DNA of 64,000 nt from a virus. Its lineage: Duplodnaviria; Heunggongvirae; Uroviricota; Caudoviricetes. The stretch is from positions 1 to 64,000 of the IMG/VR virus record IMGVR_UViG_3300030035_000081. The stretch is one strand, 5' to 3'. Position 1 is the first letter of the stretch; each line of letters opens with the position of its first letter. Both the position numbers and the translations under genes were made by a program. The notes under the pieces were generated by a model. That model was given only the letters and a program-made list of their open reading frames with translations. It did not search any database and was not told where the DNA came from. Positions 19,743 to 36,031 of the stretch are shown here, piece by piece.

Positions 19743-21938
19743 ATGATTACAACAAAGAAGATTGACCCACGGCCATATCAGCAGAAAGCTGCTGCGGCGA
19801 TTCATAGAGAGTGGGATGCCGGGAATAAGAAAACGCTGGTTGTGATGCCGACCGGAACCGGCAAAACTATTGTGTTTGCAAGCATCGTGAACGACCAGGT
19901 GGAAAAGGGCGAACACGTTTTGATTCTTGCGCACCGGGAAGAGCTTTTACAGCAGGCAAGCGACAAGCTCAAGATGGTGACGGGGCTAGAGACCGCATTG
20001 GAGAAAGCTCAGAACTCGGCACTTGATTCCGATAAAATGGTCGTTGTCGCCAGTGTTCAGACTCTCTCTAAGCAGAATCGGTTAATGAAGTATCCGCGTG
20101 ATTATTTCGGGGCTATCATCATTGATGAAGCGCATCACACGGCAGCCAAAACTTACAAGGGAATTCTCGAGCATTTCATTGATGCCAAAGTGTTGGGCGT
20201 GACTGCAACACCCGACCGAAGCGACATGAAATCCCTATCTGATATCTTTGATAGTCTTGCATTTGAATATAAGCTCCCGGATGCAATTCGGGAAGGATAT
20301 CTCTGCAAAATTAACACGAAGACAATTCCGGTCGAGGTAGACATCAGCAAGGTTCATATCAATGCCGGTGATTTCAGTGCTCAGGACCTCGGCAATGTTC
20401 TTGACCTGTATCTGGACACGATTGCGGATGCCATTGTGCGAGAATGCCAGAACCGAAAGACTGTCATCTTTACGCCTCTGGTACGAATCAGCAAAAGACT
20501 GTGCAATATCCTCAATAAGCGAAACTTCAAGACCGCAGAAGTCAATGGCGCGTCTGCGGACCGGGAGGACGTTCTGAAAGGGTTTGACAATGGCGAGTAC
20601 AAGGCGCTGACGAACGCGATGCTCCTGACGGAAGGCTGGGATTGCCCGACCGTTGACTGTATCATCTGCTTGCGTCCTACCAAGAGCCGTAGCCTGTATG
20701 CGCAGATTGTGGGACGCGGAACACGCCTATGTGAAGGGAAAAAGAATCTTCTCGTGCTGGATTTCCTGTGGCTGACAAAGAAACATAGTCTTTGCCATCC
20801 TGCTGATATTTTCTGTGAAGACCCGGAAGTGGCACAAAAGACCACCGATATGCTGGCGGATGCGGCACTCACCGGTTCGAATAGCCAGGAAAATTTCGGG
20901 AGTCCCGAATTGGGGCTGATTGAGGCAATCGAGGAAGCACAGACTGAGCTGGACGAGGAAAAGCGGAAAGCACTGTGTGAACTCGAAAAGCAGGATACGA
21001 TTCAGCGCAAGCTCAAGGCACAGCGTCAAAAGCCGAGAGGATTGGTTGACCCGCTGCAGTACATTTTCAGCATCGAAGCGCCGGAACTCAACGATTATCA
21101 GCCGATGTTTGAGAGTGAGAGGCAGGAGCCTTCCGATGACATCATCGATAGTATTTCGTGCTACGGCGTAAAAGGGGATGCCATCAAATCTCAGGGCCTT
21201 GCCGCTGCAATTCTCAAACGACTCATTGCTCGCAGAGCCAGCGGAATGGCTACCCCGAAACAAATTCGGTGTCTTGAAAGTTTTGGGTTCGTCCATGTTG
21301 GGCGCTGGACATTGCGGTATGCAAGCGGCTTTTTGGACATCATCAGTTCTCATGACTGGAAACTTCCGAATGGGTTCGACGCATCCACGCTGGACCCGGA
21401 AAAGAATACGGCAGAAGACCTCGCCAAGCTGTATCCAGACTACAAGGAAGATGAGACGAAGAAAGCACCGCGTGGGGATGCTTTCATCTGCTGCTACTAC
21501 GATGCAAGCTACAATTTGGCTCGCAAGAAGGTCTGCAACAGTGAAAAAGAAATGTTGAATCTGTATTATTCACTGTTCAATACTTGCGAAGCAAAGTACT
21601 TCTATTATACGAAGGAAGCTGATGCCTGGATGGCAGAAAAGCAGAATCTAATTGCCAGAAAGACTGGAACACCGATTCCTGCCGCACAGCCGACTCAGGC
21701 AACACCCGCAGTACCTCCTCCCTTTGTCCCGACAGCTCCCGCTAAGAGCCACGAATATTATTGCTGCCTTGCCCGATGGGATGGGTCCTACATTGGCTAT
21801 GAAACTTACAAGAGTGAGCAGGCAGCTCAGAATGCCCGAAAGCAGATTGCCCGGCGCGGTGAGACGGCAGTGTATGCCACAGTAGAGGAAGCCGAAGCGT
21901 GGGTCGAACAACAGAAGGCGGCAAGAACCAGGAGGTAA
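19743..21938 (+). CDS. SF2 DEAD/DEAH-box helicase (restriction res-subunit-like ATPase)
   Basis: Motif I VMPTGTGKT, motif II IIIDEAHH, helicase C domain. 731 aa. Confidence 0.85.
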   Translation: MITTKKIDPRPYQQKAAAAIHREWDAGNKKTLVVMPTGTGKTIVFASIVNDQVEKGEHVLILAHREELLQQASDKLKMVTGLETALEKAQNSALDSDKMVVVASVQTLSKQNRLMKYPRDYFGAIIIDEAHHTAAKTYKGILEHFIDAKVLGVTATPDRSDMKSLSDIFDSLAFEYKLPDAIREGYLCKINTKTIPVEVDISKVHINAGDFSAQDLGNVLDLYLDTIADAIVRECQNRKTVIFTPLVRISKRLCNILNKRNFKTAEVNGASADREDVLKGFDNGEYKALTNAMLLTEGWDCPTVDCIICLRPTKSRSLYAQIVGRGTRLCEGKKNLLVLDFLWLTKKHSLCHPADIFCEDPEVAQKTTDMLADAALTGSNSQENFGSPELGLIEAIEEAQTELDEEKRKALCELEKQDTIQRKLKAQRQKPRGLVDPLQYIFSIEAPELNDYQPMFESERQEPSDDIIDSISCYGVKGDAIKSQGLAAAILKRLIARRASGMATPKQIRCLESFGFVHVGRWTLRYASGFLDIISSHDWKLPNGFDASTLDPEKNTAEDLAKLYPDYKEDETKKAPRGDAFICCYYDASYNLARKKVCNSEKEMLNLYYSLFNTCEAKYFYYTKEADAWMAEKQNLIARKTGTPIPAAQPTQATPAVPPPFVPTAPAKSHEYYCCLARWDGSYIGYETYKSEQAAQNARKQIARRGETAVYATVEEAEAWVEQQKAARTRR

Positions 21939-21942
21939 CAAG

Positions 21943-22485
21943 ATGCGTACAAACAAGACGGCAAGCCATATTTACTATGAGCTTGACCACGATGTGCAGG
22001 AATATGCGAAACGGCTTTTAGCCAAAAAAATTCTGCACGCGGCACAGCAGAATAATGCCGCTCCGTTATCTGATAAAACGGCAAAGAAGACTGCTGAGAC
22101 GGCAGTATTTCTGACCGAACGCCTCGCGCTTTTGTATGAGCTGAATTCTGGATTCCGAGGCATCCGATTCAGCACTTTCGGAGAACAACCTGCTGTTTAC
22201 ACTACCATGGTCCAGCACAATGCTCCGCTGTACGATGAGCTGATGCTTGGACGGGCCTATAACCTTGCCAACTACCTTACTGCTGATAATGAGGATATCA
22301 AAGAATCTGCTTTGATGAAGCACAAGGTTTTGGCAGCAATTTATAGTGCCGCTGCATACATGAAAGGGCAGACTCCGGAGCAGGGAAAAATCTCGATTCA
22401 GAACCAGCTGTTTGTGTCTACGGCTGTTGAGCTGTTTGATGGTCTTTTGAGTGCAGCGGAAGAGAAAAAAGAACGGCAGCGATAA
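21943..22485 (+). CDS. hypothetical protein (180 aa)
   Basis: ORF. Confidence 0.55.
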   Translation: MRTNKTASHIYYELDHDVQEYAKRLLAKKILHAAQQNNAAPLSDKTAKKTAETAVFLTERLALLYELNSGFRGIRFSTFGEQPAVYTTMVQHNAPLYDELMLGRAYNLANYLTADNEDIKESALMKHKVLAAIYSAAAYMKGQTPEQGKISIQNQLFVSTAVELFDGLLSAAEEKKERQR

Positions 22486-22520
22486 AAGTGCCGCCTGAGT
22501 TAGAAATTAGGAGAATTTGC

Positions 22521-22973
22521 ATGATTCGAGTTAAGAAAGAGAACCACCGTAGTTGGTTCATGAGCAACTATTATCCTTGCGAATTTGTGATGAATGGGAT
22601 TCGCTACAAGAACGCTGAAGCAGCGTTTCAGAGTCACAAGGTCCCACTGGAAGAGCGCAGACAGTTTGCGGACATGCCACCGGCTTCTGCCAAGCGCTTT
22701 GGCCGCAATGTAGCTATCCCCGCAAACTGGGGTGAGGCTCGGGACGACGTGATGCGCCGCGTGGTGATGGCCAAGTTCGAGCAGAATGAGGACCTCAAAC
22801 AGCGCCTCCTCGAAACGGGTACGCAGCCTATTGAGGAAGACACGACCAGCTGGCATGACAATTACTGGGGCAACTGCCACTGCCCGAAATGCCAGAACAT
22901 CCCAGGTCAAAACCGGCTTGGGATTATTCTGATGGAAACGAGGAACAAGCTAAAAAAACAAACGAGTAAATAA
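22521..22973 (+). CDS. NADAR (YbiA/DUF1768) domain protein, putative ADP-ribosyl hydrolase / N-glycosidase
   Basis: SNYYPCEF, AEAAFQSHK, AKF.QN..L...LL.TG and NRLGIILM motifs typical of NADAR. AGGAGA RBS. Confidence 0.7.
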   Translation: MIRVKKENHRSWFMSNYYPCEFVMNGIRYKNAEAAFQSHKVPLEERRQFADMPPASAKRFGRNVAIPANWGEARDDVMRRVVMAKFEQNEDLKQRLLETGTQPIEEDTTSWHDNYWGNCHCPKCQNIPGQNRLGIILMETRNKLKKQTSK

Positions 22974-22989
22974 TATTTGCGAGTCATTT

Positions 22990-23046
22990 CCTTTTTTAAG
23001 ACAAAAGGCTGCCGCCCATCACGGGTAGCAGCCTTCTTTTTTTGTT
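22990..23046. terminator. bidirectional intrinsic terminator
   Basis: Stem AAGGCTGC...GCAGCCTT with a T-run (plus strand) and an A-run (minus strand). Confidence 0.6.
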
Positions 23047-23498
23047 TAGTGGGTGTCGTGGCACACATGCTCGAAATCGACGAGCAGCTCATTTGCTGCC
23101 TTTTGCACACATGCTATGGCCGGTTCATCCTTGACTTTTTCAGGTAAAAGGATAAGGCACGGACGGTTAATATCAGTTGAGCTGCTATAGTGGCAGGAGA
23201 GCAACTCTTCTCCAAATTCGTGATTAAGGGCGGAGGCAAGACATTTACCGAGCAAAGCACAATCCTCATCTTTCGCCAAAAGCCTATCCGCCTCATCGTA
23301 GTTAATGCGGCCGTTATCGAGACATATACGGTCAAGAAATGCACGAACAGAAGCAGATGCGCTCACGGCATCTATAGTCTGACGATGATTCTCAAGAAAA
23401 ATGCAAAATATCGGCTTTTCGATTTCATCCAAGTAAAAGCCAAGGCCGGTAATACGGGTATTGGTATCGGTTTGTGTCATAGGAAACACCTCATCCAT
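23046..23498 (-). CDS. hypothetical protein (150 aa)
   Basis: ORF on the minus strand between plus-strand blocks. Confidence 0.55.
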   Translation of the reverse strand: MDEVFPMTQTDTNTRITGLGFYLDEIEKPIFCIFLENHRQTIDAVSASASVRAFLDRICLDNGRINYDEADRLLAKDEDCALLGKCLASALNHEFGEELLSCHYSSSTDINRPCLILLPEKVKDEPAIACVQKAANELLVDFEHVCHDTH

Positions 23499-23534
23499 TA
23501 TGGCAGCGAATCACCTTGCCGCATTCAGAACAAC

Positions 23535-25421
23535 TCACTGAACAACTTCGCCAAGGTCATTTGCGTATTTCGGGTCACACATCATGAAATAGTTGACGGG
23601 GCCGTACTCCAGACCGAGCTCCTGCGCGTATGCCTTGATAGCTTCCAGAACGTCCTCTTTCTTGAGGCCAAACTTGGAATGCAGACGGGCAAACTCTTTG
23701 TCAGAGACAGAAACGCAAGAGCAATTTTCTGCATCGGTTTCTTTGCTGCCCAGCATCCCGTCAAAGATGTCCTGTCCTGCACAGAGAACCGTCTCATTGT
23801 TCATCGCATAGGCGATAACGGAAGCCTTACAGTCAAAGTCGCTGTCTTCCACAAGGAAATCCTCAGGGCGGCCGTGACGTTCAACAACGTTTTCATAGAT
23901 GTCCCGGAGTTCGATAGGAGCAGAAGGAGCAGTCAGCGCTGCTTTATGAAGGCGCATGAATTCCACAAACTTTTCATCCGAGAGGGTATCAGTATAAAAG
24001 CCGATGCCGGAAACGCGAACCTTCACTTCGCTGGCAAAGTAATCGTCAATTTTGGAGACGATTTTCTGCTGGACCCGCTTGTATGCTTCCTGAACATTGG
24101 AAGCCGTGTAAAATACCGGGAACTTCATGATGTCGATTCCCTCCGGCAGACTCGCGTCATAGGCCGCATCAATGCCGCCTCGCAGCGCCGGAACCGCGTC
24201 ATGCAGCTCTTTCACAGAAGAAATGTATCCGGTAATGTACAGCTCATCGTTTTTGCTGTAATGCCCGATAAGTCCTACATAGAGAGTCTGCATCAGCATC
24301 CGCTTGAAGCTGAACCAACAAAGACGAATGGGTAGAATGACATTAGCAGCCGTACCTTCCGTACGATAGGTGCCGGGGGCAGAGACCTTTTCCAGCAGAA
24401 TCTGGTCGTTCTTGTCACCGTATTTTTCCTTGAAAAGAGCTTGAAGAATTTCAGTGGACGAAAGAGGAGTGGACATTGGAATCGTTTCATTCAGAAAAGA
24501 GAGGAATGCATCCACGTTGTCTTTCTGCCATGCGTCATCAGACATGCTTGCACGCTGCATAGAGAGCTTGTCTTTCCCGTCGTCAGGCAAGGGCTCATAC
24601 CCACAGGCGATACGAAGCTCGTTCTCCGTGACAGCATCTGTTGCGCTTGCAATTTTCTTGATGGTATTCTCGGTCGGCTGAGCTTTCGCGTTGCCGTTCG
24701 CAAGGTTACTGATATATCCACGAGTCAGCCCCGCTTGAAACGCAAACTTACCCTGTGTGCGGGTTCCGATGGCTTTTTTGACCAGCGATGCCAGCCTTTG
24801 AAAGTCGGGCTCTTTGGGAAAGGTGGCCTCCGTATCCTTATTGCTGTTCTTTTCAAGTACCGACTTGTCCCAACCGGTGACAAGAGAATACCCAATATCC
24901 TTCAAGGATTGATAGGCAACCCCGTTCTGGTCAAGAGCCGGGGAGTATGTACCGCTGTTATCTTCCAGCTGCTCTACTGCCTCACGCACCATCCTTGCTT
25001 CGTTCATCAGGATGACGTCCGGGGCTTCAAGCCGGGCAAGACTCTTGTACCGACTATTGAGGCGCTCGACTCGTGCGGCCAATGCAGTGATGTTGGCAAC
25101 TTGGTCTTCCGTTGCATGGGCAGAGATATCTGCACCAAGTTCAAAATGGTTCAGTGCAGGAATATCCACGCCTTTGCTCTTGGCGAATTCCACCATGGCC
25201 TCCGCACCGTAAAAGCGCTTCTCATGGGTTGCGACAACTTTCGTTATCGTGTCGGCCGAGTTGTCCAGCTCAAGCACTTCACCTTTTCCGGCATCCTCGA
25301 CATAACACCTGGCGTTGGTGAGAAAGCCTTTCAAAAAATCAGCATCCACATCCAGCTTCTTAGCGATGCCGGGCAGCTGCTTATAGAAAATCACGGGCAT
25401 GGCGAGGTTAACATAAATCAT
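23535..25421 (-). CDS. large hypothetical protein (628 aa) with an internal XRE-type HTH
   Basis: HTH segment QAGLTRGYISNLANG...TENTIKKIA. Confidence 0.6.
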   Translation of the reverse strand: MIYVNLAMPVIFYKQLPGIAKKLDVDADFLKGFLTNARCYVEDAGKGEVLELDNSADTITKVVATHEKRFYGAEAMVEFAKSKGVDIPALNHFELGADISAHATEDQVANITALAARVERLNSRYKSLARLEAPDVILMNEARMVREAVEQLEDNSGTYSPALDQNGVAYQSLKDIGYSLVTGWDKSVLEKNSNKDTEATFPKEPDFQRLASLVKKAIGTRTQGKFAFQAGLTRGYISNLANGNAKAQPTENTIKKIASATDAVTENELRIACGYEPLPDDGKDKLSMQRASMSDDAWQKDNVDAFLSFLNETIPMSTPLSSTEILQALFKEKYGDKNDQILLEKVSAPGTYRTEGTAANVILPIRLCWFSFKRMLMQTLYVGLIGHYSKNDELYITGYISSVKELHDAVPALRGGIDAAYDASLPEGIDIMKFPVFYTASNVQEAYKRVQQKIVSKIDDYFASEVKVRVSGIGFYTDTLSDEKFVEFMRLHKAALTAPSAPIELRDIYENVVERHGRPEDFLVEDSDFDCKASVIAYAMNNETVLCAGQDIFDGMLGSKETDAENCSCVSVSDKEFARLHSKFGLKKEDVLEAIKAYAQELGLEYGPVNYFMMCDPKYANDLGEVVQ

Positions 25422-25657
25422 GGTGTACTCCTTTCAAATATGTCGTTAGCTGTACAATGCTGTCATCTTATGTAATTATAATAGCACATCCCGCACCAAA
25501 AAGCAAGCGCGAATTTACAATAAATGACAAGAAAATACACGAGATGACATATTTGAGCAAAGCAGTTGTTTTTTGGCATTTCCTGTTCAGCAACGGAACA
25601 AGTCCCATGTACCTTGTCTTTGCCACTGTTTTGCTACGGTTTTGCCACAATTTTGCC

Positions 25658-25685
25658 TTGTGCATCCGTGCGAATTGGATATGAT
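25658..25685 (+). promoter_or_regulatory. island promoter family member 8: -35 TTGTGC, spacer ATCCGTGCGAATTGGA, -10 TATGAT
   Basis: Seen in sequence. Followed within 25 nt by an intrinsic terminator. Confidence 0.55.
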
Positions 25686-25691
25686 AGGAAA

Positions 25692-25750
25692 TATAAGATA
25701 AATAAGTGTAGCCGCAGAGGATAGGTTTCTGCGGCTTCTTTTTGTGTTTT
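25692..25750 (+). ncRNA. candidate small RNA: promoter-proximal transcript ending at hairpin GCCGCAGAGGATAGGTTTCTGCGGC plus U-tract
   Basis: Promoter and terminator bound a transcript of about 55 nt. Inference only. Confidence 0.3.
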
Positions 25751-25877
25751 CTAAATTTCATCCGGAACTGCGCGACAACTGGAACCGTAAGCTCAACACC
25801 CGCATCGACCCGATGCAGGTAACAGCTTCCGGCACAAATGCTGTTTACTGGGTCTGCACCAAGTGCGGGCGCAAATG
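25749..25877 (+). pseudogene. remnant of a zinc-ribbon (DUF4379-like) domain gene
   Basis: Translation HPELRDNWNRKLNTRIDPMQVTASGTNAVYWVCTKCGRK matches the repeated HPE..EWDYE...W.C.KCGH units of the 26177 protein. No start codon. Confidence 0.5.
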
Positions 25878-25976
25878 AAAAGCATCCATCAACGACAGGG
25901 TACAGGGGAAAGCAGAAAGCCCTACTCTGAAGTGCCACTATATATTCTCTCATTTCATTAAATAAAAGCTATCATA

Positions 25977-26017
25977 AACGCACGCATCATTCAAAAAATG
26001 TGTGCGTGCGTTTTTTG
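25977..26017 (+). terminator. intrinsic terminator
   Basis: Stem AACGCACGCA...TGCGTGCGTT plus T-run. Confidence 0.5.
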
Positions 26018-26176
26018 TGCGTTTCCGCACATTTAACGCTCATTTTTTTGTGGGGACCAGCCCGTGACATAATAGATTCAGACGGAAGAAATAAACAGCC
26101 TTATTCAAATAAGTAAAAAGGCATCCTATGCAGAGAGATTCTGCATAGGATTTTTTATTAAAGAGGGAAATTCAAT

Positions 26177-28045
26177 ATGGCGGCGAAAATAAATAGAACA
26201 GGCAAAACATACGGAGATTTAACAGTTTTCGAAACTATCCCCGGCTCTAATTCAAAAGCAGATACCTATTTGGTGAAATGTAACTGCTGCGGAAACACAA
26301 TGATAATTGGTATCGACGCGCTCTTGAAAGGGTTAAAGTGTAAAGACTGCCGAGGTAAAGACCGTAAACGTACATACCAGGATTTGGTTGGCGAAGAACA
26401 CAACGGTATCAAAGTTATTTCTTTGGCAGAAGATGCGATTGGAAGCACGGGGCATAGAAACATTCGTTATAACTGTATGTGTAGCTGCGGAAAAGAGTTT
26501 GTTGCTTATCGCTCTTCTTTGCTGCGGGGAAAAGTGAAGTCTTGCGGTTGTTGCAAACACATTACCGAAGCTTCGAAAATGCTTGTAGATAATGCAGAAG
26601 CTATGCAAGACTATGACTTTGCAAAAAATAAGGACGTAGATGTCAGTATGCTGACACAAGGAAGCAATATTGTTGTATGGTGGAAATGCTCTGCTTGTGG
26701 CACGGAATGGCAGGCAAGCGTATATCATTACATCCAGCGTATCAAGAGTTGCCCGATATGCAGCACTATCGATAAAGGACAGACCTCGTTCCAAGAACAA
26801 GCAGTAGCGTATTATGCAAAAAAGTATTTTTCAGAGGCTGTTATTGGAAACAAGAAAGTTATTGGAAAAGAGCTGGACATTTACATCCCCTCCATTCGCA
26901 CTGCAGTAGAATACGATGGTGTTCGATACCATTCTGATGAGAAAAGAGTGAAAAATGACGAAGAAAAGTCCGAAAAATGCAAGCAGAATGGAATTCGGAT
27001 AATTCGTATTCGCGAGCATGGGCTTCAGGAAATTCGTAATAGCGAGAATATCATCAGAGAAAACAATAGAGGGCACGCAACGCTCGACGCAGCAATTCGC
27101 CAATGCTTAGAGATGCTTGGCGTTTCTGAACCTAACATTGATACACAAAAGGATTCAAAAGACATCTATCGTCAATACAAAGATTACAAAGCTGAACGAA
27201 GTATGGGCGGACGGCATCCGGAACTCCTGAAAGAATGGGACTACGAACTGAATGTAGGCATTGACCCGATGATGGTGTCATCATCTAGCTCAGAAATGGT
27301 TCATTGGATTTGCTCTAAGTGCGGGCATAAATGGGAAGCACCCATCAATGGCAGAGCAAAAGAAAACGCAACATGTCCTGTTTGTACAACAGGCAAAAGA
27401 AGACGGAACGAAAAGAACAACCTTGCTACAGAACATCCTGAAATTGTTGCTGAATGGGATTACGAAAAAAACAAGAATTTGAAGCCCGAATATTTCTCAT
27501 CCGGGTCTGCAGAAAAATGCTGGTGGAAATGCAAAAACGGTCATTCCTACAAGATGATAATAGCCGATAGAGTATACGGGCATAACTGCCCTGAATGCTA
27601 TAAACAAAAACACTTCAAGAGTGTGATTTGCGTTGAAACAAAAGAGAGATTTTCTACAGCAAAAGAGGCTTCTCTTAAATACGGGATTAGCGGCGGTTCG
27701 CCTATCTTGAACTGCTGCAACAAGCTACGTACAGTTGCCGGAGGATATCATTGGTTATTTGCCAATGAATACGAAAGCATGACAGAAGAGGAAGCAGATG
27801 CCTTTTTGAAAGCAAATCCATCACGCGATAAGTTCGTCAAAAAAGGAAGAACTTACGATTTAGCTAATATGCACTTTGGTAAGCTAAAGGTCATTGAGAG
27901 AGCAGGAAGCCAAAACGGTCATGCTCGATGGAAATGTCAATGTGATTGCGGAAACGAATGCTTTGCGATAACCCAAAGTCTTGTAGAAAACAAGAAAACA
28001 TCATGCGGTCATTGTAATACGGAAAATACATCCAGTGCTGAGTAA
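26177..28045 (+). CDS. multi zinc-ribbon (DUF4379-like repeats) protein with a Vsr/DUF559-like PD-(D/E)xK endonuclease domain
   Basis: Repeated HPE...W.C.KCGH.W units. Central ELDIYIPSIRTAVEYDGVRYHS resembles the Vsr-like fold. 622 aa. Confidence 0.65.
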   Translation: MAAKINRTGKTYGDLTVFETIPGSNSKADTYLVKCNCCGNTMIIGIDALLKGLKCKDCRGKDRKRTYQDLVGEEHNGIKVISLAEDAIGSTGHRNIRYNCMCSCGKEFVAYRSSLLRGKVKSCGCCKHITEASKMLVDNAEAMQDYDFAKNKDVDVSMLTQGSNIVVWWKCSACGTEWQASVYHYIQRIKSCPICSTIDKGQTSFQEQAVAYYAKKYFSEAVIGNKKVIGKELDIYIPSIRTAVEYDGVRYHSDEKRVKNDEEKSEKCKQNGIRIIRIREHGLQEIRNSENIIRENNRGHATLDAAIRQCLEMLGVSEPNIDTQKDSKDIYRQYKDYKAERSMGGRHPELLKEWDYELNVGIDPMMVSSSSSEMVHWICSKCGHKWEAPINGRAKENATCPVCTTGKRRRNEKNNLATEHPEIVAEWDYEKNKNLKPEYFSSGSAEKCWWKCKNGHSYKMIIADRVYGHNCPECYKQKHFKSVICVETKERFSTAKEASLKYGISGGSPILNCCNKLRTVAGGYHWLFANEYESMTEEEADAFLKANPSRDKFVKKGRTYDLANMHFGKLKVIERAGSQNGHARWKCQCDCGNECFAITQSLVENKKTSCGHCNTENTSSAE

Positions 28046-28079
28046 TTCGGTGCTGGATTTTTTATTGGGAGATATAGAC

Positions 28080-29144
28080 ATGGCAAAGAACGATAACCTT
28101 CATAAGGCGAAGGACGCGAAGAATGATGAGTTCTACACCAGAATCGAGGATGTCGCAGAGGAATTGCGGCACTACAAGAAGCATTTCGCAGGCAAGGTTG
28201 TATTCTGCAACTGTGACGACCCGACATGGTCCGCTTTCTGGCGGTATTTTCACCTGAACTTTGCAGAACTTGGCTTAAAGAAGCTGATTTCTACGCACTA
28301 TGACCACACCGAACCAACCTACAAGATGGAGTACGAGGGCGGGGATGATAATGATGTGGAAGTCGGTGTAAAAACCCTGCTGGAAGGCAACGGCGATTTC
28401 CGGAGCAAGGAATGCCTTGACTTGCTGGATGAAAGTGATATCGTGGTGACCAATCCGCCATTCAGCTTATTCCGTGAGTATGTTGGCACACTGATGCAGC
28501 ACGGCAAAAAGTTCCTGATTATCGGGAATAAGAACGCCATTACATACAAAGAGTTTTTTCCACTTCTGAAAGAAAACAAAGTGTGGATTGGTTATAGCTC
28601 ACCATCCGAGTTTGATACCCCCAATGGAATAACAAAGAAAATCAACGGTCTAACAAGATGGTTTACTAACCTCGACATCCAGAAGCGCCACGAGAAACTG
28701 ATTCTCTGGCAGCGGTACTATGACGATGACGGAAACCCTCTGCCGGACGTGGAAGAGCGCTACCCCCGCTATGATAACTACATGGCCATCAATGTGGATA
28801 GGGTTGCGAATATTCCGGTGGACTATGAAGGCGTTATGGGCGTGCCTATCACTTTTTTGGATAAGTATAATCCGGAGCAGTTTGAGATTGTTGGTGGTTC
28901 CATGTTCGATGATACGCCTTGCAGAGCCGATAAAGATTATACAAGCCTTGGCTTTAAGTTCTTCAAGGCGGATGGCGTAACAATCTCCGGCTCTGGTGCA
29001 TTAAGAGATAAGATGTCACCAAAAGTTGTTAAAAGAGGAAGGAGCGACTTTTCGGTAAGCCCTGATGGCGTGCAGCTTTCCGCAGTTTATCAGAGAATTT
29101 TTATCAGAAAAAGGAGGAAGCAAGGCGATGAAGGTACAAAATGA
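28080..29144 (+). CDS. putative DNA N6-adenine methyltransferase (NPPF motif)
   Basis: DIVVTNPPFS catalytic motif IV. Standalone, no cognate endonuclease recognised. Confidence 0.55.
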   Translation: MAKNDNLHKAKDAKNDEFYTRIEDVAEELRHYKKHFAGKVVFCNCDDPTWSAFWRYFHLNFAELGLKKLISTHYDHTEPTYKMEYEGGDDNDVEVGVKTLLEGNGDFRSKECLDLLDESDIVVTNPPFSLFREYVGTLMQHGKKFLIIGNKNAITYKEFFPLLKENKVWIGYSSPSEFDTPNGITKKINGLTRWFTNLDIQKRHEKLILWQRYYDDDGNPLPDVEERYPRYDNYMAINVDRVANIPVDYEGVMGVPITFLDKYNPEQFEIVGGSMFDDTPCRADKDYTSLGFKFFKADGVTISGSGALRDKMSPKVVKRGRSDFSVSPDGVQLSAVYQRIFIRKRRKQGDEGTK

Positions 29145-30011
29145 AAATCAACATTATTTGCCAAAATACCGACTGAAAAAATTCGCTGGAAAAGACGGAA
29201 ATTTTTTTGTATATAACAAGGAAACTGGAAAAATTATACATGTAGGGGCAAATGTAAAAGGTATTGCAGCGGAAAACAATTTATATGAATATCCAGAGCT
29301 CAAAAAATGGAACGAATGCTATCGTGGGAAGATTGAAAAAGGACTCCTGAGCAATGATATTGAGAATTCTGATGCGAAAAAGTTGAACGAAATTCTTAAT
29401 GAAATTGATAAAACAACTTATTTGAATTCGGAAAATAGAATATCCGAAGAATCTGCGCATTGGCTTGGAGAGTATGCCTTGCGTATGCTGTTCAGGCTAC
29501 CATCGTATATAGACGAATAAAAAAACTGTTCGATACAGAAGAAGCATTTTGCAATTTCATGAAATTTATACAGACGGGGAACCATCCAAAGTTATCTGAT
29601 AATGAGTGGAACTACTATAAAGTAAAAATTGGATATTACAGTTCAGGAACCGTTATCTATAAAGCAAACAATAGCGCCATTTTACTTCCGGATATAGGGC
29701 TTGTGCTGGGTACAGGCTGTTTGAATAACACAGGCACAGAATATAGTTTATCAAATCATATGGTTATCACAATATTGTCGCCAAAAATTTACTGCGTTAC
29801 ATCATGCGGCAGCAACTCTTCGTTGCAAAAGGAGAATAGATTGATTCGCAATGCGAAAGAAAAGGATGTGATGCGTCTGAATGCCGCTTCTTATGCATCT
29901 GCCAAAAAGCATGTAATTTCTAAATATGAGTTGACGCAGAATATAATAAAAGCAATTATAAAAAGTGCTGACGATATTAACATTGTGGGCAGAGAAAGGA
30001 AATTGTTATGA
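29128..30011 (+). pseudogene. DUF4238-like gene apparently split by a frameshift (ORFs 29128..29520 and 29460..30011)
   Basis: N-terminal QHYLPKYRLKKFA matches the DUF4238 opening. Two overlapping frames sum to about 300 aa, the family size. Confidence 0.35.
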
Positions 30012-31144
30012 AAATCACAGAAACCAAAATCAAGGTATCCGACCTTGTAGAGAACTATTCGGATGACGGAGACAGTGGCGTATATGGGTACAACAATCGC
30101 CTCACGATTAGGCCAAGCTACCAAAGAAATTTTTGCTTCTCCGATAAACAGCGTGCAGCCGTCATTGATTCGGTAATGAACGGATTCCCGTTGAACCTCA
30201 TGTACTGGTCCAAGACCGGTCCAGATACCTACGAGGTTCTCGATGGACAACAGCGGACAATTTCCATTGCACAGTATGTCAACAAGGATTTCCCCGTCAA
30301 AATCAACGGCAACGACAAGTTCTTCCAGAACTTGACAGATGAGGAAAAACAGAAAATTCTGGACTACGAGTTGACCGTGAATATCTGTGAAGGCTCCGAA
30401 GCCGAGAAACTGGAATGGTTCAAGCGCATCAACATCGCCGGTGAGGTGTTGACTCCGCAGGAGCTGCTGAACGCTACTTATACAGGACCGTGGCTGGCCG
30501 ATGCCAAGAACTACTTCTCGAAACGCAACTGTGTTGCTGCGAAGATGGCTGACGGATACCTGAAAGGTAACCCGATTCGGCAGGAGTTGCTGGAAAAGGC
30601 ACTGGCGTGGATTGCTGACCGTGATGGTCTGGAATCCGGGCAGATGTACATGGCGATTCACCAGCATGACGAGGACGCCAATGACCTCTGGCTTTACTTC
30701 CAGTCTGTAATCAACTGGGCTAAAATGTTGTTCCCGACCAAGCGGAAGGGAATTACGGATACACAGGCATGGGGACTACTCTACAACAAGTACCATGCAA
30801 AGCAGTATAATAGCAACGCTCTGGACGCTGATATCAAGAAACTCGTGCTGGATGATGACGTGACCAAGAAGGCAGGCATTGTCCCGTTCATCCTCTCTGA
30901 CCGCACTTGGCGCGACGAAAAGCATCTGTCCCTTCGTGCATTTACTGAGTCGCAGAAACTCCGCGCCTATGAGCGGCAGGGTCACAAGTGCCCCTTGTGC
31001 GTTGCAAATGGCATCAACACCGAGTACGCCTTTGAGGATATGGAAGGCGACCACATCATTCCTTGGAGCAAGGGCGGACATACCACTGATGACAATCTGC
31101 AGATGCTGTGCAAGAAGTGTAATGCGGCGAAGTCGGATATGTAA
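30008..31144 (+). CDS. GmrSD-like type IV restriction endonuclease (DUF262 ParB-like NTPase domain plus HNH nuclease)
   Basis: DGQQR motif (EVLDGQQRTIS) at the N-terminus. C-terminal HNH (HKCPLC...GDHIIPWSKGG...NLQMLCKKCN). Confidence 0.85.
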   Translation: MKITETKIKVSDLVENYSDDGDSGVYGYNNRLTIRPSYQRNFCFSDKQRAAVIDSVMNGFPLNLMYWSKTGPDTYEVLDGQQRTISIAQYVNKDFPVKINGNDKFFQNLTDEEKQKILDYELTVNICEGSEAEKLEWFKRINIAGEVLTPQELLNATYTGPWLADAKNYFSKRNCVAAKMADGYLKGNPIRQELLEKALAWIADRDGLESGQMYMAIHQHDEDANDLWLYFQSVINWAKMLFPTKRKGITDTQAWGLLYNKYHAKQYNSNALDADIKKLVLDDDVTKKAGIVPFILSDRTWRDEKHLSLRAFTESQKLRAYERQGHKCPLCVANGINTEYAFEDMEGDHIIPWSKGGHTTDDNLQMLCKKCNAAKSDM

Positions 31145-31230
31145 TGGTGGGAGCATATCATGAAAAAATATCGCTATTTCATGTTCGGTATGTTCACCGG
31201 CACAGATGGGAATACAAATGTCGTATTTTT

Positions 31231-31635
31231 TCAAAAATCCAATTTATAATCCCCTGTAAGAATCCCATCAACCTCCATTGTTGCGTTCGGGTCTGCTCGA
31301 AACCCAGCTTTATGACAAAAGACTTCCATTTCACGAGTTAGTACAGATTGCATAACGATACGATGCACACCATAGTCTTCGCAAATTTCTTTCAACGCAT
31401 CGAGCAACAGAGACATTGTACCATGACGCTTTATAGAAAACCTAACACGTGAAATAACCAAAGCAAAATTACAAAGAAATGAAACCCTAAGTTCATTTTC
31501 ACCGTCATCAGAAGTAATCCAGACTGTGCGCATACTATTAGATACGTTGCAAATACAACCTTGCTTATCCTCGATGATATTCACAAGCCGTTGCGTTTGT
31601 TCCTTCGTAAGCTCAAGCATACCGGGCAATGCCAT
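31231..31635 (-). CDS. small GNAT-like acetyltransferase (tentative)
   Basis: 134 aa. C-terminal HRIVMQSV...KAGF resembles the GNAT fold. Confidence 0.4.
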   Translation of the reverse strand: MALPGMLELTKEQTQRLVNIIEDKQGCICNVSNSMRTVWITSDDGENELRVSFLCNFALVISRVRFSIKRHGTMSLLLDALKEICEDYGVHRIVMQSVLTREMEVFCHKAGFRADPNATMEVDGILTGDYKLDF

Positions 31636-31649
31636 AAAGATTCCTCCGA

Positions 31650-32190
31650 CAGTTATGTAGTATCATTTCATACATATATTATACATGCATTCTATACCGT
31701 TGGCCAAGCTGCTAGGTCGTTATTTTACAAAAAAATTCAAAAACAGGAGCCGTTCATACCACAGGAAAGCCTGCGGGTTTTCTAGCTCCCAATTATAACA
31801 TTGGTGCCCGGTATTTCATCCGCGAGGTAACAAAACCCATGTCAAAGAAGGCATGGTCTCAGTGTAAGGCTAAAGTTCCTGACATTGAGCGTAGAACCCA
31901 ATGCACATTGTACTCCCTTAAACAGTTGCATTCACTGTTGAGCCCCCCGTGGCGACTCAACAGCCCGGGCCCATCTGTTGGGATTACACTGTGTTGCGAG
32001 AACTTTGCGGGAGACTAACCCCTATGTGGCGACCAATGCCGTCAGGCATTGTTAGCTAAGTTCGGGTCGTATCTCTACCTTCGGGTTACGCAGAGACTTA
32101 CCGTGGGGTTACAACCCACGGAGAAGCCCCAACTATAGCCGAAAGGTTTAGGTGGGGAGGTCCACGATGAAGCATACAAAATCAGCGAGG
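31650..32190 (+). ncRNA. candidate large structured non-coding RNA (ORF-free 540 nt with many hairpins); strand unresolved
   Basis: No ORF of 60 aa or more on either strand. Hairpins such as CCGTGGGGTTACAACCCACGG, ATGCCGTCAGGCAT and GTTGAG...CTCAAC. Confidence 0.3.
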
Positions 32191-32199
32191 TAGAAGTTA

Positions 32200-32589
32200 A
32201 TGTTTAATACTAAGAAAACCGTCCGCCAGGACATTCACGAAAACGAAGCCGCTTACTCCGGAACCGTGACTACCGTCACCCACAAGACCATCGTGGTCTT
32301 CATCCCGGCGCTCGATGTCGAGGTGGATGTCCAGCGTAACCCCGATGCATCCGTTCAGAACGGTTCTGTCCCCAAAGTAGGGGATATCGCAACCGTGCAG
32401 ATTGTGCTCGAAGACGGCGACTATACCGCTACCGCTGCCACGTTCGTGCCACAGCAGGACATCAGGGAAGACATTCCCGTCACTGATGACGACTTCTTTG
32501 ATGACGATTTGGATGATGAAAAAGCAGAGGAGTATGACTGGTACAACGAGCCTCCTGCAGATGATTTTGGTAACTTAGATATTGACTGA
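32200..32589 (+). CDS. acidic hypothetical protein (129 aa)
   Basis: GAGGTAGAAG RBS. D/E-rich C-terminus. Confidence 0.55.
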   Translation: MFNTKKTVRQDIHENEAAYSGTVTTVTHKTIVVFIPALDVEVDVQRNPDASVQNGSVPKVGDIATVQIVLEDGDYTATAATFVPQQDIREDIPVTDDDFFDDDLDDEKAEEYDWYNEPPADDFGNLDID

Positions 32590-32595
32590 GTTATT

Positions 32596-32722
32596 GAAAT
32601 TTGCCTTGAGTTTTTCGCAAGGCGTGATATAATAGAACCATCACAAAAGGTTTTGAGCCTCCCATCGTAATCAGTAGTATGCTGACTGCGGTGGGAGGCT
32701 GTTTATTTTAAGGAGGATTCTG
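32596..32722 (+). promoter_or_regulatory. promoter-leader module A: extended -10 TGATATAAT followed by leader hairpin AGCCTCCCA...TGGGAGGCT plus U-tract, then RBS
   Basis: Seen in sequence. Near-duplicate at 33960..34100. Confidence 0.45.
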
Positions 32723-32723
32723 T

Positions 32724-33173
32724 ATGAAAAGCGAAAATGACGACAAGAAAATTGTGGCACAGCACATTTATACTTATTACCATAATAAGCGAAAAAAAGC
32801 TGTTATGAGAAATGAAAAAGTGACAGTGACTACTAAGGACGCTGAAGAATGGCTTTCCAAGATTGATGGCAAGGAATCTATTACAATATTGAAAAAGGCA
32901 CTAGAACTCGCAAATGGTCAAGATAGTGTTCCTATAGTGATTGATAACAACTCTGAATTGCGAATGCTTTTTATGACGGGAAATGGATACAAAGACCGAG
33001 AAAACAACGCAAACCAAAAAGAAGCGACAAGAAAAGCGCGCCTACGTTTCGAAGACTTGAAAAATCGTGGCTATTTTAATGGTAGTTGTAACAATTTTTG
33101 GGTAACACTATACGGCAAAGAATACGTCCTTTCCGCAACAAACAAGAGCACAGGGAACCTAGAAAATGGTTGA
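32724..33173 (+). CDS. hypothetical protein (149 aa)
   Basis: AAGGAGG RBS. Confidence 0.6.
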   Translation: MKSENDDKKIVAQHIYTYYHNKRKKAVMRNEKVTVTTKDAEEWLSKIDGKESITILKKALELANGQDSVPIVIDNNSELRMLFMTGNGYKDRENNANQKEATRKARLRFEDLKNRGYFNGSCNNFWVTLYGKEYVLSATNKSTGNLENG

Positions 33174-33350
33174 TATTGGAGACCAATAGTGAACCGGGCT
33201 TTGTTTGCGTACTAACACTTTAAATGGAATTGCTAAAATCATCACAGCATGGTATAATATACTCAATATAAAGACTATAACATCATTCCACACACCATCA
33301 AGCAGAATACCAATAACCAAAACCAATCACATAACGAAAGGAACCATACC

Positions 33351-33815
33351 ATGTCCACCCTCAAAAACGGCGAGTTCGGCATCGACTTGGACAAGGAGAA
33401 AATTCTCTGGACCGACCGAAAACGCCACACCATTTTTTCTCTGCCGCTATCCTTTACGAAGTACACCCTGACCGAGACCAAACTCATCATCCAGCGTGGC
33501 TGCTTCAATTTGCGCGAGGACGAGATTCAGCTGTACCGCGTCCGGGACATCGCATTCAAGCAGAACTTCTATGAGCGTCTGTGCCGTGTTGGCAGCATCC
33601 ATCTCTGCTCCACGGATGCTATGACACCGGAAATCGATATCCGTCGTATCAAGAACCCGCGCGATGTCAAGGAAGTGCTTTCTAAAACCATTGAGGCTTG
33701 CCGGAAAGCGAACGGTATCCGTACTTCGGAAATCATCGGGGACCATGGTCACTTCCAAGAGCCTGACCCGCATGGTATGCCGCCTGAACCATGCCACGAA
33801 CATCCTCATGACTAA
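33351..33815 (+). CDS. bacterial PH-like (bPH_2/DUF304, YdbT-like) domain protein with a His-rich tail
   Basis: Composition and length typical of bPH_2. C-terminal HGHFQEPDPHGMPPEPCHEHPHD. Confidence 0.5.
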   Translation: MSTLKNGEFGIDLDKEKILWTDRKRHTIFSLPLSFTKYTLTETKLIIQRGCFNLREDEIQLYRVRDIAFKQNFYERLCRVGSIHLCSTDAMTPEIDIRRIKNPRDVKEVLSKTIEACRKANGIRTSEIIGDHGHFQEPDPHGMPPEPCHEHPHD

Positions 33816-33959
33816 TACGAGCCCGTACAGATTCAGTTCTGTGCGGACTATTTTTTGTTTACAAAGAAATTTAAAGTCCGGTCTGGTCGGATTCATGAGG
33901 TATGACGGTTAACCGATTATGCGAACCTCATACAAGTCAACTACCCCACCTGAAGGAGG

Positions 33960-34100
33960 GGTGTACTAAGATTGGCCTTGAGTAATTCGAGTAATTCACG
34001 AAGCGTGGTATAATAAGACTATCACAAAAGGTTTAATCCTCCATCGTAATCAGTATCACACTGACTGCGGTGGGAAGCTTTTTGTTTCGCAGAAAGAGGG
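33960..34100 (+). promoter_or_regulatory. promoter-leader module B (duplicate of module A, more degenerate hairpin)
   Basis: Shared blocks GCCTTGAGT, GCGTGGTATAATA, ATCACAAAAGGTTT, CCATCGTAATCAGTA, CTGACTGCGGTGGGA. Confidence 0.45.
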
Positions 34101-34108
34101 CGATGGTT

Positions 34109-34918
34109 ATGATTGAATCAGAAAAACAGTTAATTCGTAAATTTCAAACAGAGCCAACAAAAGAAATTTGCTTATTATGTAATACAAAAGAAGAAGCGGA
34201 ACTGCGTTCCATCATTCAAAGCAAAAACTTCTGGAATGAATGGATAGATACCTCTGCACATAATGCACCACCACCGGATTTTTACTCGGATAAATATGGC
34301 CTTATGATGGATGTTATGAAGATAGAGGATAATACGAGGAAAGGGAAAAAAGGCAAATTATATAATCCAAAAGCAGAAAAAGAAAGTCAAGTGTATAGAA
34401 AATTCAAAAATGCTGGCGTCATTACAAGCGAAACACAAGATGTCGTAATAAACGCTGTTACGGACTTGCCTACAATGGAGGACCATCAATTCAAGTGGTA
34501 TTTTGATTCCTTTGAGCGAGTTGTTTCGAGTCACAATAACAAAATTCCACTTTACCAACAAAACCATGAAAACTTCAAAACTATATTTTTTGTTTATGAC
34601 GAATCCACTGCATATACGCAACTTTTCGCCGGTCAAACTTATATTATCCCTGAAAAAGGTCAAATCAATTATGTCTCTCCGTCACAGCTCCACTTCTATG
34701 CACATGATATAAAATTTCAAAGCATCATAAAAAATAGTGATGCAGATTACATGATTTGGTACGCACCATATAAATATTACGACAAATTGTCCGATGGCTT
34801 TAGAAGGTTGAAACAGCCTATTTATAGAGCTGCTATTATTGATGTAAAAGCGTTAAAAAGTGGGAAAAGCCATTCAAAAAACTACATTCATGGGCTGATG
34901 ATTAGTGCGGAAGAATAA
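34109..34918 (+). CDS. hypothetical protein (269 aa)
   Basis: AGAAAGAGGG RBS 8 nt before ATG 34109. Confidence 0.55.
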   Translation: MIESEKQLIRKFQTEPTKEICLLCNTKEEAELRSIIQSKNFWNEWIDTSAHNAPPPDFYSDKYGLMMDVMKIEDNTRKGKKGKLYNPKAEKESQVYRKFKNAGVITSETQDVVINAVTDLPTMEDHQFKWYFDSFERVVSSHNNKIPLYQQNHENFKTIFFVYDESTAYTQLFAGQTYIIPEKGQINYVSPSQLHFYAHDIKFQSIIKNSDADYMIWYAPYKYYDKLSDGFRRLKQPIYRAAIIDVKALKSGKSHSKNYIHGLMISAEE

Positions 34919-35060
34919 ATGCCACGTGGTTATTATGTAGCCAACAACCTCAAAAGGGAACGCTGCCTAATGGATGCTTATTCCAGAATGTCTGAAATTG
35001 ACTCATTATGCGATTTGCCTAGAATGATAAGAAACAAAAACAGAAAGCGAGACGTATATA

Positions 35061-35261
35061 ATGTTTGCCATGTGTCGAGATGGCTCAACCGTTCATGTCT
35101 TTGGAAACACCATAAGTGTCAGCGGCCGGGGCATGAGCGAAACCTATATTTTGTGCGGGAACATGCTCATGGGCCCACGCGGATTCAGGTCGATGAACTG
35201 CAGGAGCATTGATGAGGCGTTTTGCCTGGTGTGCGGTGTACACGGCGGCAAGAATTGGTGA
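35061..35261 (+). CDS. small paralog D of the 11667-12317 family
   Basis: GNMLMGPRGFRSMNCRSIDEAFCLVCGVHGG aligns with the family C-terminus. Confidence 0.45.
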   Translation: MFAMCRDGSTVHVFGNTISVSGRGMSETYILCGNMLMGPRGFRSMNCRSIDEAFCLVCGVHGGKNW

Positions 35262-35270
35262 AGCAAAATC

Positions 35271-35349
35271 CTTGATTTGTGTTGTTTTTGGGGTGTGTTA
35301 AGGTCTTGATTTGTGTAGGATTTCACCCTTTCATAGGTCTTGATTTGTG
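35271..35349 (+). repeat. three direct repeats TCTTGATTTGTG(T/C) with 33-bp periodicity (iteron-like)
   Basis: Copies at 35271, 35304 and 35337, read directly from sequence. Confidence 0.6.
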
Positions 35350-35403
35350 CAGAATCCCAAGGCAAATACAAGAAATCGCGAACCCAATATAAGAAATTTT
35401 GTA

Positions 35404-35431
35404 TTGCTACAGCGTGCGAATTGCGTACAAT
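35404..35431 (+). promoter_or_regulatory. island promoter family member 9: -35 TTGCTA, spacer CAGCGTGCGAATTGCG, -10 TACAAT
   Basis: Seen in sequence. Confidence 0.6.
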
Positions 35432-35479
35432 TAAAAATGTTGAAAGACAAACCACAACACACAAAAAGGAGATTTTACC

Positions 35480-35800
35480 ATGAGCACTAGCATTCTGAAA
35501 CTTGAAGCCACTGTAATCCGTCCCAAAGATTTTGACGAACTCGACGGCCTCGCCGCTTCCATCAGCTTCCCTGTCGAATACGATGATGAAGCAATTGGTG
35601 AGGCCCTGGGCGACCAGGACCTGATGGCCTATGTCGTCGGAGAGCTGCACGACCTCGTTGTCCGTATGCGTCCCGAATGGCTGGATAACGAGGATACCAG
35701 CCTGACCATCAAGGCATTCCTGGACGACGCCGAGTGCCAGACGTTTAAGGGCCTTGTTGCAATGAAAGAAGACAGCTACACCTTCGACCTTGAAGGCTAA
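35480..35800 (+). CDS. acidic hypothetical protein (106 aa)
   Basis: AAAGGAGA RBS. Confidence 0.6.
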   Translation: MSTSILKLEATVIRPKDFDELDGLAASISFPVEYDDEAIGEALGDQDLMAYVVGELHDLVVRMRPEWLDNEDTSLTIKAFLDDAECQTFKGLVAMKEDSYTFDLEG

Positions 35801-35821
35801 ACACAACAGTGCAAAAGCAAA

Positions 35822-35858
35822 CCCTGCTCGCAGCAAAATGCGGGCAGGGCTTTTTTGT
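35822..35858 (+). terminator. intrinsic terminator
   Basis: CCCTGCTCGC...GCGGGCAGGG plus T-run. Confidence 0.65.
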
Positions 35859-35924
35859 TTGCGTAGCTGCATCCTTTTGTCCACAGAAACCGTAGGTGCC
35901 AGGATGCGTAGCTGCCGACACGGC

Positions 35925-35952: not shown

Positions 35953-36031
35953 CAGATTTGTACGACAGATATCAAACACAAAATAGGGTTTATATTGAGC
36001 TGCTCAGTGGCCTTATGGCTGTTGGGCTGCT

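Follow-up and report, generated by a model that had tools for sequence, protein, structure and literature searches.

Enzymes of the GmrSD, BrxU and SspE kind consist of an N-terminal DUF262 nucleoside triphosphatase (NTPase) domain followed by a His-Me finger nuclease (PMC4619093). Nested defence genes with many alternative occupants are known from the Hma, BREX, DISARM and Type I restriction-modification (R-M) systems of bacteria (10.1101/2024.01.29.577857), the classical case being PrrC inside the EcoprrI hsd locus (Payne et al. 2024, 10.1101/2024.01.29.577857). A single DUF4238 protein from an E. coli P2 prophage hotspot, Rst_DUF4238, protects against T7 (Rousset et al. 2022, PMC9122126). 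Here we describe a locus that can be compared with all three. It occupies positions 25658-31144 of a 64,000-nucleotide (nt) stretch of DNA from a Caudoviricetes phage (positions 1 to 64,000 of IMG/VR record IMGVR_UViG_3300030035_000081, hereafter the window). The region lies wholly on the plus strand.

We consider it likely that the region is an R-M operon on a jumbo phage, with a swappable defence slot inside it and a separately inserted zinc-ribbon module. Under this model, an EcoRI-family N6-adenine methyltransferase (M) would mark the phage's own DNA, and a ParB-like NTPase fused to a zinc-HNH nuclease (R) would cut unmarked DNA, whether host chromosome or rival phage or plasmid. The slot between M and R would carry one of many single-gene abortive-infection or exclusion-type cassettes. 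The DUF4238 cassette of the window is inactive, having lost one nucleotide within an A-rich tract where frameshifts recur across the phage population. Finally, a 2.3-kb module (an old DUF4379 relic and a gene for a protein of 622 amino acids (aa)) would have inserted independently upstream, in the manner of a homing endonuclease. Since the element is a jumbo phage, 'defence' here refers to phage-encoded functions. An earlier, sequence-only reading had described five consecutive defence or modification-type loci; all five are present in place, but they form an M-R operon, a slot gene and a separate insertion. The component families (EcoRI-family methylase, REBASE-type nuclease, DUF4238, zinc-ribbon nuclease) are already known, and their arrangement is new. 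The annotation alone is ordinary; the arrangement carries the ideas of embedded defence and phage hotspots over to a virus-borne Type II-like system of two genes.

The methylase-nuclease pair and the slot it encloses

The operon comprises three genes:

28080-29144, plus strand: EcoRI-family N6-adenine DNA methyltransferase, 354 aa, intact; the M of the pair
29128-30011, plus strand: DUF4238 gene, inactivated by a 1-nt deletion at 29515-29517 that cuts the product to 130 aa
30008-31144, plus strand: DUF262 (ParB-like NTPase, DGQQR) plus zinc-HNH endonuclease, 378 aa, intact; the R of the pair

The methylase matched PF13651 at 3.9e-109 (365.6 bits against a cut-off of 26.4) and the PADLOC model PDLC03297 MTase_II at 1.1e-105, in agreement with the earlier identification of an adenine methyltransferase with an NPPF motif. 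Its most plausible start is ATG 28080, which has a GGGAGA ribosome-binding site, over GTG 28035. The genuine M.EcoRI, defined as the gene adjoining the 'type-2 restriction enzyme EcoRI' on plasmid pU90-3, is 47.7% identical to M over core residues 2-271 (tblastn) and 51% identical in a MAFFT alignment. All family-invariant residues (DEFYT, CNCDDP, GDGDFRS, TNPPFS) are kept, and motif I, for which the sequence-only reading had entertained degeneracy, is intact in this alignment. The nuclease has its own AAAGGA ribosome-binding site. It matched two Pfam families, GmrSD_N (PF03235, 7.8e-20) and HNH (PF01844, 2.4e-13, with CxxC...CxxC zinc ligands), and, over its full length, the PADLOC model REase_II PDLC03418 at 2.2e-129, with residues 1-377 aligned to positions 1-371 of the 372 in the profile. 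Residues invariant in R are DGQQR (D79-R83), CxxC, DH...N...N and CxxCN. Ratios of nonsynonymous to synonymous substitution rates (dN/dS) of 0.09 for M and 0.065 for R indicate strong purifying selection on both genes. PDB sequence searches with R and with M returned no match.

Linkage between the two genes was examined by scanning one genome per species with a nuclease profile. More than 400 relatives were found, from which 80 loci at 48-74% identity were kept; these represent many phyla and span Neisseria to Saccharibacteria to one archaeon. A tblastn search with the window methylase placed a same-strand EcoRI-family methylase upstream of R in 76 of the 80, and three of the four loci lacking one have less than 250 nt of upstream sequence. 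On plasmids from Aeromonas, Mammaliicoccus, Ligilactobacillus, an uncultured bacterium and many others, M and R overlap by 1-4 nt; NCBI annotates the two products as 'adenine-specific methyltransferase EcoRI family protein' and 'DUF262 domain-containing protein'. The pair is likewise found on related phage contigs, and three independent large contigs each have an EcoRI-family methylase immediately followed by an R homologue, at 70-95% identity. In the window, R is on the same strand as M, 864 nt 3' of it, with one embedded gene between. The methylase is therefore not the orphan enzyme that had been proposed. Three elements by which PADLOC and DefenseFinder recognise Type II R-M systems are present: a methyltransferase profile, a nearby restriction endonuclease profile and conserved linkage of M and R. 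Overall, these data support the assignment of M and the DUF262-HNH protein as a predicted cognate two-gene R-M operon, in the order M then R. The pair resembles the EcoRI system in the identity and invariant residues of its methylase, including TNPPFS, and in being a two-gene M/R operon. It differs in that the partner nuclease is a DUF262-HNH protein, whereas R.EcoRI is a PD-(D/E)XK enzyme, and in the order of the genes.

Relative contigs and loci compared with the window carry the labels L001-L141, and P0121 denotes a protein cluster representative. A 95%-identical relative, L001, aligns to the window as far as methylase residue ~270 and again from ~20 nt before the start of R; between these points it carries an unrelated 275-aa gene. 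Among 36 IMG/VR loci with a 90-98% identical R, 29 contain both M and R, and the slot in those 29 is occupied by at least nine unrelated gene families. The occupants include:

TIR protein, in 5 loci: PF13676 1.6e-21, PADLOC PDC-S66 1.3e-40
CAP12/Pycsar-type TIR protein: PF10137 1.6e-22, PDC-S35
493-aa protein: weak HEPN match
membrane proteins of two kinds
several proteins without any domain match
DUF4238, the occupant in the window

The slot thus holds unrelated alternatives between conserved genes, some of them with known defence domains, as in an embedded-defence hotspot. A given cassette tends to come with its own version of the variable C-terminal methylase tail. These observations argue that M and R flank a recombination-exchangeable slot and that DUF4238 is best regarded as one of at least nine alternative cassettes, not as an independent neighbour. 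As in PrrC/EcoprrI and the systems of Payne et al. (2024), accessory genes are nested within a restriction system and have many alternative occupants. In contrast to those systems, the scaffold in the window consists of just two genes, is Type II-like and belongs to a jumbo phage; the exchange of a cassette also takes in part of the methylase C-terminus. Rst_DUF4238 and the slot gene of the window have in common that one DUF4238 protein is encoded at a variable phage hotspot. The window gene differs in that it is very distant in sequence, lies inside an R-M operon and is frameshifted. A very common gut jumbo phage would accordingly possess an R-M operon with an internal swappable slot for single-gene defence effectors. 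Such a slot may offer a cheap route to new effectors, several occupants being without a known domain.

Cargo was also seen between M and R in bacterial homologues (L046 4401-4974, L053 4021-4950, L062 3085-4999, L052 4095-4993). It includes a Phd/YefM-like plus RelE/ParE-like pair, a Fic protein (HPFIDGNGR), a 429-aa coiled-coil protein together with a 221-aa protein, and two small proteins of no known type.

The promoter, leader and inserted zinc-ribbon module

Upstream of M, the following features were identified:

25619-25656, plus strand: tandem 11-nt repeats (TTTGCCACnnT), 3-4 copies, abutting the -35 element
25658-25685, plus strand: sigma-70-like phage promoter; -35 TTGTGC, 16-nt spacer with GTGCGAATTG, -10 TATGAT
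25710-25746, plus strand: leader hairpin and T-run, terminator- or attenuator-like, from a terminator scan (stem-loop 25710-25736)
25737-28054, plus strand: inserted 2.3-kb module (DUF4379 relic, two terminator-like hairpins, 622-aa gene)
25747-25953, plus strand: relic of a DUF4379 gene, now a pseudogene; TGA in frame at 25876-78, second CxxC lost
25976-26013, plus strand: terminator-like hairpin with U-run (-19.7 kcal/mol, z -4.4)
26116-26159, plus strand: 44-nt hairpin repeat, copy 1 (ATCC...GGATTTTTTATT), directly 5' of the ribosome-binding site of the 622-aa gene
26177-28045, plus strand: 622-aa multi-zinc-ribbon protein, three DUF4379 units (Pfam 4.7e-47), CxCxCG ribbons
28023-28066, plus strand: 44-nt hairpin repeat, copy 2, overlapping the stop codon of the 622-aa gene and preceding the methylase ribosome-binding site

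The promoter at 25658-25685 heads the whole region. It was missed by a generic promoter scan, in which it fell below threshold with a -35 matching at only 3 of 6 positions. The motif belongs to a family with the consensus -35 TTGCnn, a 16-nt spacer with (C/T)GTGCGAATTG, and -10 TACAAT or TATAAT. Nine same-strand copies are present in the window (6093, 8273, 12447, 15033, 16243, 25667, 35413, 38272 and 52015, all plus strand) against 2.05 expected, a number reached in none of 100 shuffles, and every copy sits 5' of a plus-strand gene. The conserved, near-palindromic spacer, which contains GAATTG, suggests a regulator binding site; any tie between GAATTG and the EcoRI-type methylase is pure speculation. 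The 11-nt tandem repeats are not conserved in L008 and L009 and are possibly an operator. A 161-aa open reading frame (ORF) at 25468-25953 on the minus strand, which gene callers predict in relatives, was rejected as spurious, since it runs across promoter, hairpin and relic alike and matches no family.

The leader hairpin begins ~25 nt 3' of the promoter-like site and has a folding energy of -19.8 kcal/mol (z -4.0). Its stem sequence is kept while its loops vary in L008, L009 and L126, and the block of promoter and hairpin is kept 5' of the variable region in these three and in L094. What the sequence-only reading had called a promoter-proximal short terminated transcript (25692-25750) does contain the promoter-linked hairpin, but is better described as a conserved 5' leader. 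The hairpin may terminate, attenuate or stabilise the transcript, and we interpret it as a putative attenuator.

The module parts the promoter and leader from the methylase. In L126, a match to window 25400-25736 (88.8%) is followed by 44 nt and then by a match to 28055-28099 (91%), the segment that holds the methylase ribosome-binding site and ATG. Because L126 lacks the intervening DNA, the window holds a 2.3-kb insertion at 25737-28054. The 44-nt stretch at this empty site is a second hairpin and ends in GGGGATTTTTTATT. A 44-nt direct repeat flanks the 622-aa gene; its copies are 73% identical, with differences that preserve the stem. Copy 1 was found in the terminator scan (-21.4 kcal/mol, z -6.4), and copy 2 folds at -16.8 kcal/mol. 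Sequence related to the hairpin at 25976-26013 is found between cassette genes in L008.

The relic had been reported as a pseudogene fragment (25749-25877) duplicating the zinc-ribbon unit. The DUF4379 relic itself is real: 25744-25878 matched Pfam DUF4379 at 4.5e-6, and it resembles residues 347-402 of the 622-aa protein (46% identity, E 2e-12). It is longer than first reported, continuing past the in-frame TGA to ~25953. Its affinity lies with a 78-aa DUF4379 ORF that precedes a large zinc-ribbon gene in L092 and L094 (55% over 69 aa, 73.5% at the nucleotide level over 332 nt). This similarity identifies the relic as the orthologue of that old ORF and not as a recent duplicate of the 622-aa gene.

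The 622-aa protein itself, first noticed as zinc-ribbon/Vsr-like, contains three DUF4379 treble-clef units and a weak Vsr-like nuclease segment. This Vsr/PD-(D/E)xK-like segment spans residues 232-287 and scored 20.3 bits against MTES_1575 (cut-off 38.2) and 18.3 against DUF2726 (cut-off 24.7). The protein matched PHROG 559, 374, 681 and 3339, which are annotated as HNH or homing endonucleases, at 4.3e-39 to 1.6e-10, and PADLOC HEase at 5e-5; one source labels it a 'very-short-patch-repair endonuclease'. By eye, residues ~480-520 resemble a NUMOD1-type helix-turn-helix; Pfam reports none.

Free-standing phage homing endonucleases with a Vsr-like or PD-(D/E)xK core include the EDxHD family enzyme I-Bth0305I. 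The 622-aa protein appears to share with such enzymes zinc-ribbon and helix-turn-helix-like DNA-binding modules and a weak Vsr-like segment, and its gene shares with theirs presence/absence polymorphism at a defined intergenic site, here between conserved flanks. It differs in lying outside any intron or intein, in having a nuclease domain under curated thresholds, and in having a target site that is only putative. Could the protein instead be tied to the R-M operon in function, as a nuclease for defence or exclusion? This is possible but distinctly the less likely account. The gene has the same orientation as M and R and lies under their promoter, and multi-DUF4379 proteins are abundant in mobile elements of Clostridia. 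However, it is missing from L008, L009 and most IMG/VR relatives that retain M-R, and it occurs without M-R in L092-L094, with mosaic relatives in other contexts. The clean empty site, the domain-mosaic architecture of the protein and its close relatives, and the homing or HNH annotation of the families that it matches also speak against such a tie. We therefore favour the selfish alternative, in which the 622-aa gene behaves like a free-standing homing-endonuclease gene with a presumed nuclease activity, and the module appears to have inserted independently between the conserved promoter and leader of the operon and M, outside the R-M unit.

In L008 (2401-5532) and L009 (2545-5531), a methylase-rich accessory block lies 5' of the EcoRI-type methylase instead of the zinc-ribbon module. 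Besides an N6/N4 methylase gene, the block has genes for two C5 cytosine methylases and for a 437-aa protein of no assigned function.

The type of restriction system and the state of the DUF4238 gene

We infer that methylation inhibits R and is not a requirement for its cleavage; the biological targets of the system are inferred likewise. R would then probably be a GmrSD-type NTPase-nuclease of opposite sign. Whether its methylation-blocked cleavage would be independent of nucleoside triphosphates (NTPs) is placed in doubt by the invariant DGQQR motif.

This motif also bears on the unlikely proposal that R has no specificity of its own and acts only in complex with M, as in Type III Res-Mod enzymes, the ParB-like NTPase replacing the helicase motor; the pair would then represent a distinct NTP-dependent R-M class rather than true Type II. 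R is unusually conserved, at 48-53% across phyla and at 90-98% within the phage family, where the M core ranges from 68 to 94%. In addition, the C-terminal module of M is hypervariable, with non-triplet repeats and alternative out-of-frame tails in some bacteria, and tail switching would be lethal if R had a fixed specificity of its own and the tail set that of M. Against this, the tail can be as short as ~14 aa (L012) and is short in the genuine M.EcoRI too, so that a role as target-recognition domain is doubtful. PADLOC places R among Type II enzymes, and the M-R complex is hypothetical.

Simple-sequence repeats were observed in the variable C-terminus of methylase homologues in L038 (332-1867), L069 (534-1780), L013 (3752-4858), L030 (3618-4809) and L129. 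Their units are not multiples of three: (CAGA)n encodes TDRQ, a 5-nt unit EEKRR and (GA)n ER. Extra out-of-frame copies of the C-terminal module follow the repeats, an arrangement that looks like slipped-strand phase variation or tail switching.

More unlikely still is a reading with two unconnected enzymes: an orphan methylase that protects the phage and, in the DUF262-HNH protein, a GmrSD-like Type IV enzyme whose substrate is modified DNA. R does have a DUF262 domain with DGQQR that matches GmrSD_N. In its AlphaFold (AF2) model (mean predicted local distance difference test score, pLDDT, 79.7), the N-terminal part resembles ParB-CDP, Noc, BrxU and SspE, and the C-terminal part small HNH nucleases. 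R also matches the PADLOC models NsnA and PD-T4-2_A; these and any other Type IV-like matches score far below the full-length match to REase_II. Moreover, a Pfam scan of R found no DUF1524 (PF07510) domain, and its nuclease is a canonical zinc-HNH. A stand-alone enzyme needs no methylase, yet one is adjacent to R in the 76 genome loci and on small plasmids, and is often translationally coupled to it. Because it is without DUF1524 and has a methylase partner, R is not filed as GmrSD, although the DUF262 and HNH domains of the 'GmrSD-like' label were correctly recognised. Like GmrSD, BrxU and SspE, it begins with a ParB/Srx-fold NTPase domain carrying DGQQR and ends in a His-Me finger nuclease. 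It differs from them in being shorter (378 aa), in carrying PF01844 zinc-HNH instead of DUF1524, in being paired with a methylase, and in presumably being blocked by modification, where those Type IV or phosphorothioate-sensing enzymes depend on it. Two labels that automated reading would spread, 'orphan methylase' and 'Type IV GmrSD-like enzyme', are thereby corrected.

Several points weigh against our interpretation of the locus as an R-M operon on a phage with an inserted homing-type module. DUF262 is otherwise known from modification-sensing enzymes (GmrSD, BrxU, SspE). The inhibition of R by methylation is a prediction, and the characterised REBASE enzyme that seeds PADLOC REase_II PDLC03418 was not found in the literature searched. 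Several terminator-like hairpins lie between the promoter and M, in the path of M-R transcription. The nuclease domain of the 622-aa protein falls below Pfam cut-offs, and support for a homing target site comes from presence/absence alone. Finally, the 64-kb window contains neither a capsid nor a terminase gene; what identifies the element as a phage is its tRNA array, its PHROG matches, its place in IMG/VR and the genes found on large related contigs.

The DUF4238 reading frame, previously noted as split near 29460-29520, is represented by two ORF pieces (29065-29520 and 29460-30011). Over 19128-38144 the window and L007 are 99.74% identical: 19,018 bases align, and the two differ by 48 substitutions and a single indel. 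This indel is the A missing at 29515-17, where L007 reads GACGAAATAAAAAAAC and the window GACGAATAAAAAAAC. Restoring the A yields a 294-aa DUF4238 protein that is 100% identical to P0121 and matches Pfam at 1.1e-17 (64.8 bits, the cut-off being 27), with residues 7-266 aligned to positions 1-278 of the 281 in the profile. The repaired protein had no PADLOC match at E up to 1. Its AlphaFold model, built with only 8 close homologues, had a pLDDT of 35.5 and was unusable.

Eight contigs, drawn from JGI, Logan and ENA, encode the identical 130-aa truncated product, and one of them (L096) comes from an independent SPAdes assembly; a second frameshift 8 nt downstream (A7 to A6, 144-aa product) was found on 11 contigs from at least 9 samples. 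The recurrence of this and of the second lesion marks the frameshift as genuine, a loss-of-function allele in circulation at a site where such changes recur. Most alleles are intact (dN/dS 0.20-0.26 among them), so that an intact DUF4238, raised earlier as the alternative to a split gene, does circulate, as in L007, yet side by side with frameshifted alleles. That the split is a sequencing or assembly error of a gene intact in the real phage is very improbable: the A-rich surroundings of the lesion (A3-T-A7) and the existence of an intact copy encoding the identical protein speak for such an error, but the lesion is the only indel in 19 kb, falls in the 3-base and not the 7-base run, and recurs, as does a different frameshift, on the contigs just described. 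A programmed -1 frameshift was also rejected, as the slippery heptamer A_AAA_AAC comes after the frame-1 stop and a relative has a plain intact ORF.

A more far-reaching interpretation, which we regard as rather unlikely, combines these features. The M plus DUF262-HNH pair would be a distinct NTPase-coupled R-M class, and the M-R junction a hypervariable slot for 'guard' effectors coupled to R-M. The occupants (DUF4238, TIR, CAP12-type TIR, HEPN-like and membrane proteins, toxin-antitoxin pairs) would then be guards tied to R-M as PrrC is to EcoprrI and deployed against rival phages, with A3-T-A7 serving as a slippage-prone on/off switch.

The phage and its other features

The host element is a common, widespread, GATC-free jumbo phage, and the region is the promoter-proximal part of its hypervariable accessory region. 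Several window proteins matched PHROG families, and the window contains 18 tRNA genes. Exact window proteins occur on 295-502 contigs, the longest of 301,930 bp, and IMG/VR viral contigs with close R homologues reach 389 kb. The host of the phage is probably among gut Clostridia. Searched by megablast with 25400-31700, GenBank phages and PLSDB plasmids contained no near-identical DNA.

GATC has no site in the window against ~250 expected (z -22); GCCGGC, CCGCGG, ATTAAT and GTGCAC are likewise at zero. GATC is also missing from all close relatives (L001, L007-L009, L012, L092-L094, L106-L141) and is present in more distant M-R carriers (L004, plasmids). Its absence is a property of the phage lineage and not of the M-R pair. 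Counts of GAATTC, CAATTG and AATT in the window were uninformative on the methylation target, and inference of that target by palindrome avoidance was abandoned.

Further features of the window are:

4446-5555, minus strand: TnpB/IS605 OrfB gene
6182-6442, plus strand: HEARO RNA (91.2 bits), next to the TnpB gene
10872-10941, plus strand: hepatitis delta virus (HDV)-like ribozyme, F. prausnitzii type (60.4 bits)
23535-25421, minus strand (divergent): 628-aa protein with an HTH_3 domain, conserved in every relative, where it borders the variable region
57211-63564, plus strand: tRNA array, 18 genes, with one odd two-base anticodon call at 58634-58709

Residues ~110-175 of the 628-aa HTH_3 protein resemble RNA polymerase beta-prime (TIGR02386, 2.9e-7, far under the cut-off). 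Other gene products of the window include helicases, a phospholipase D (PLD) nuclease, NADAR, RlaP and a metallo-beta-lactamase (MBL)-fold protein. L007 departs from the window past 38144: it carries Cas5d and Csd1 of a type I-C CRISPR-Cas system (L007 19545-20885), and the window a UvrD-like helicase (38352-40106), marking another variable spot in the phage.

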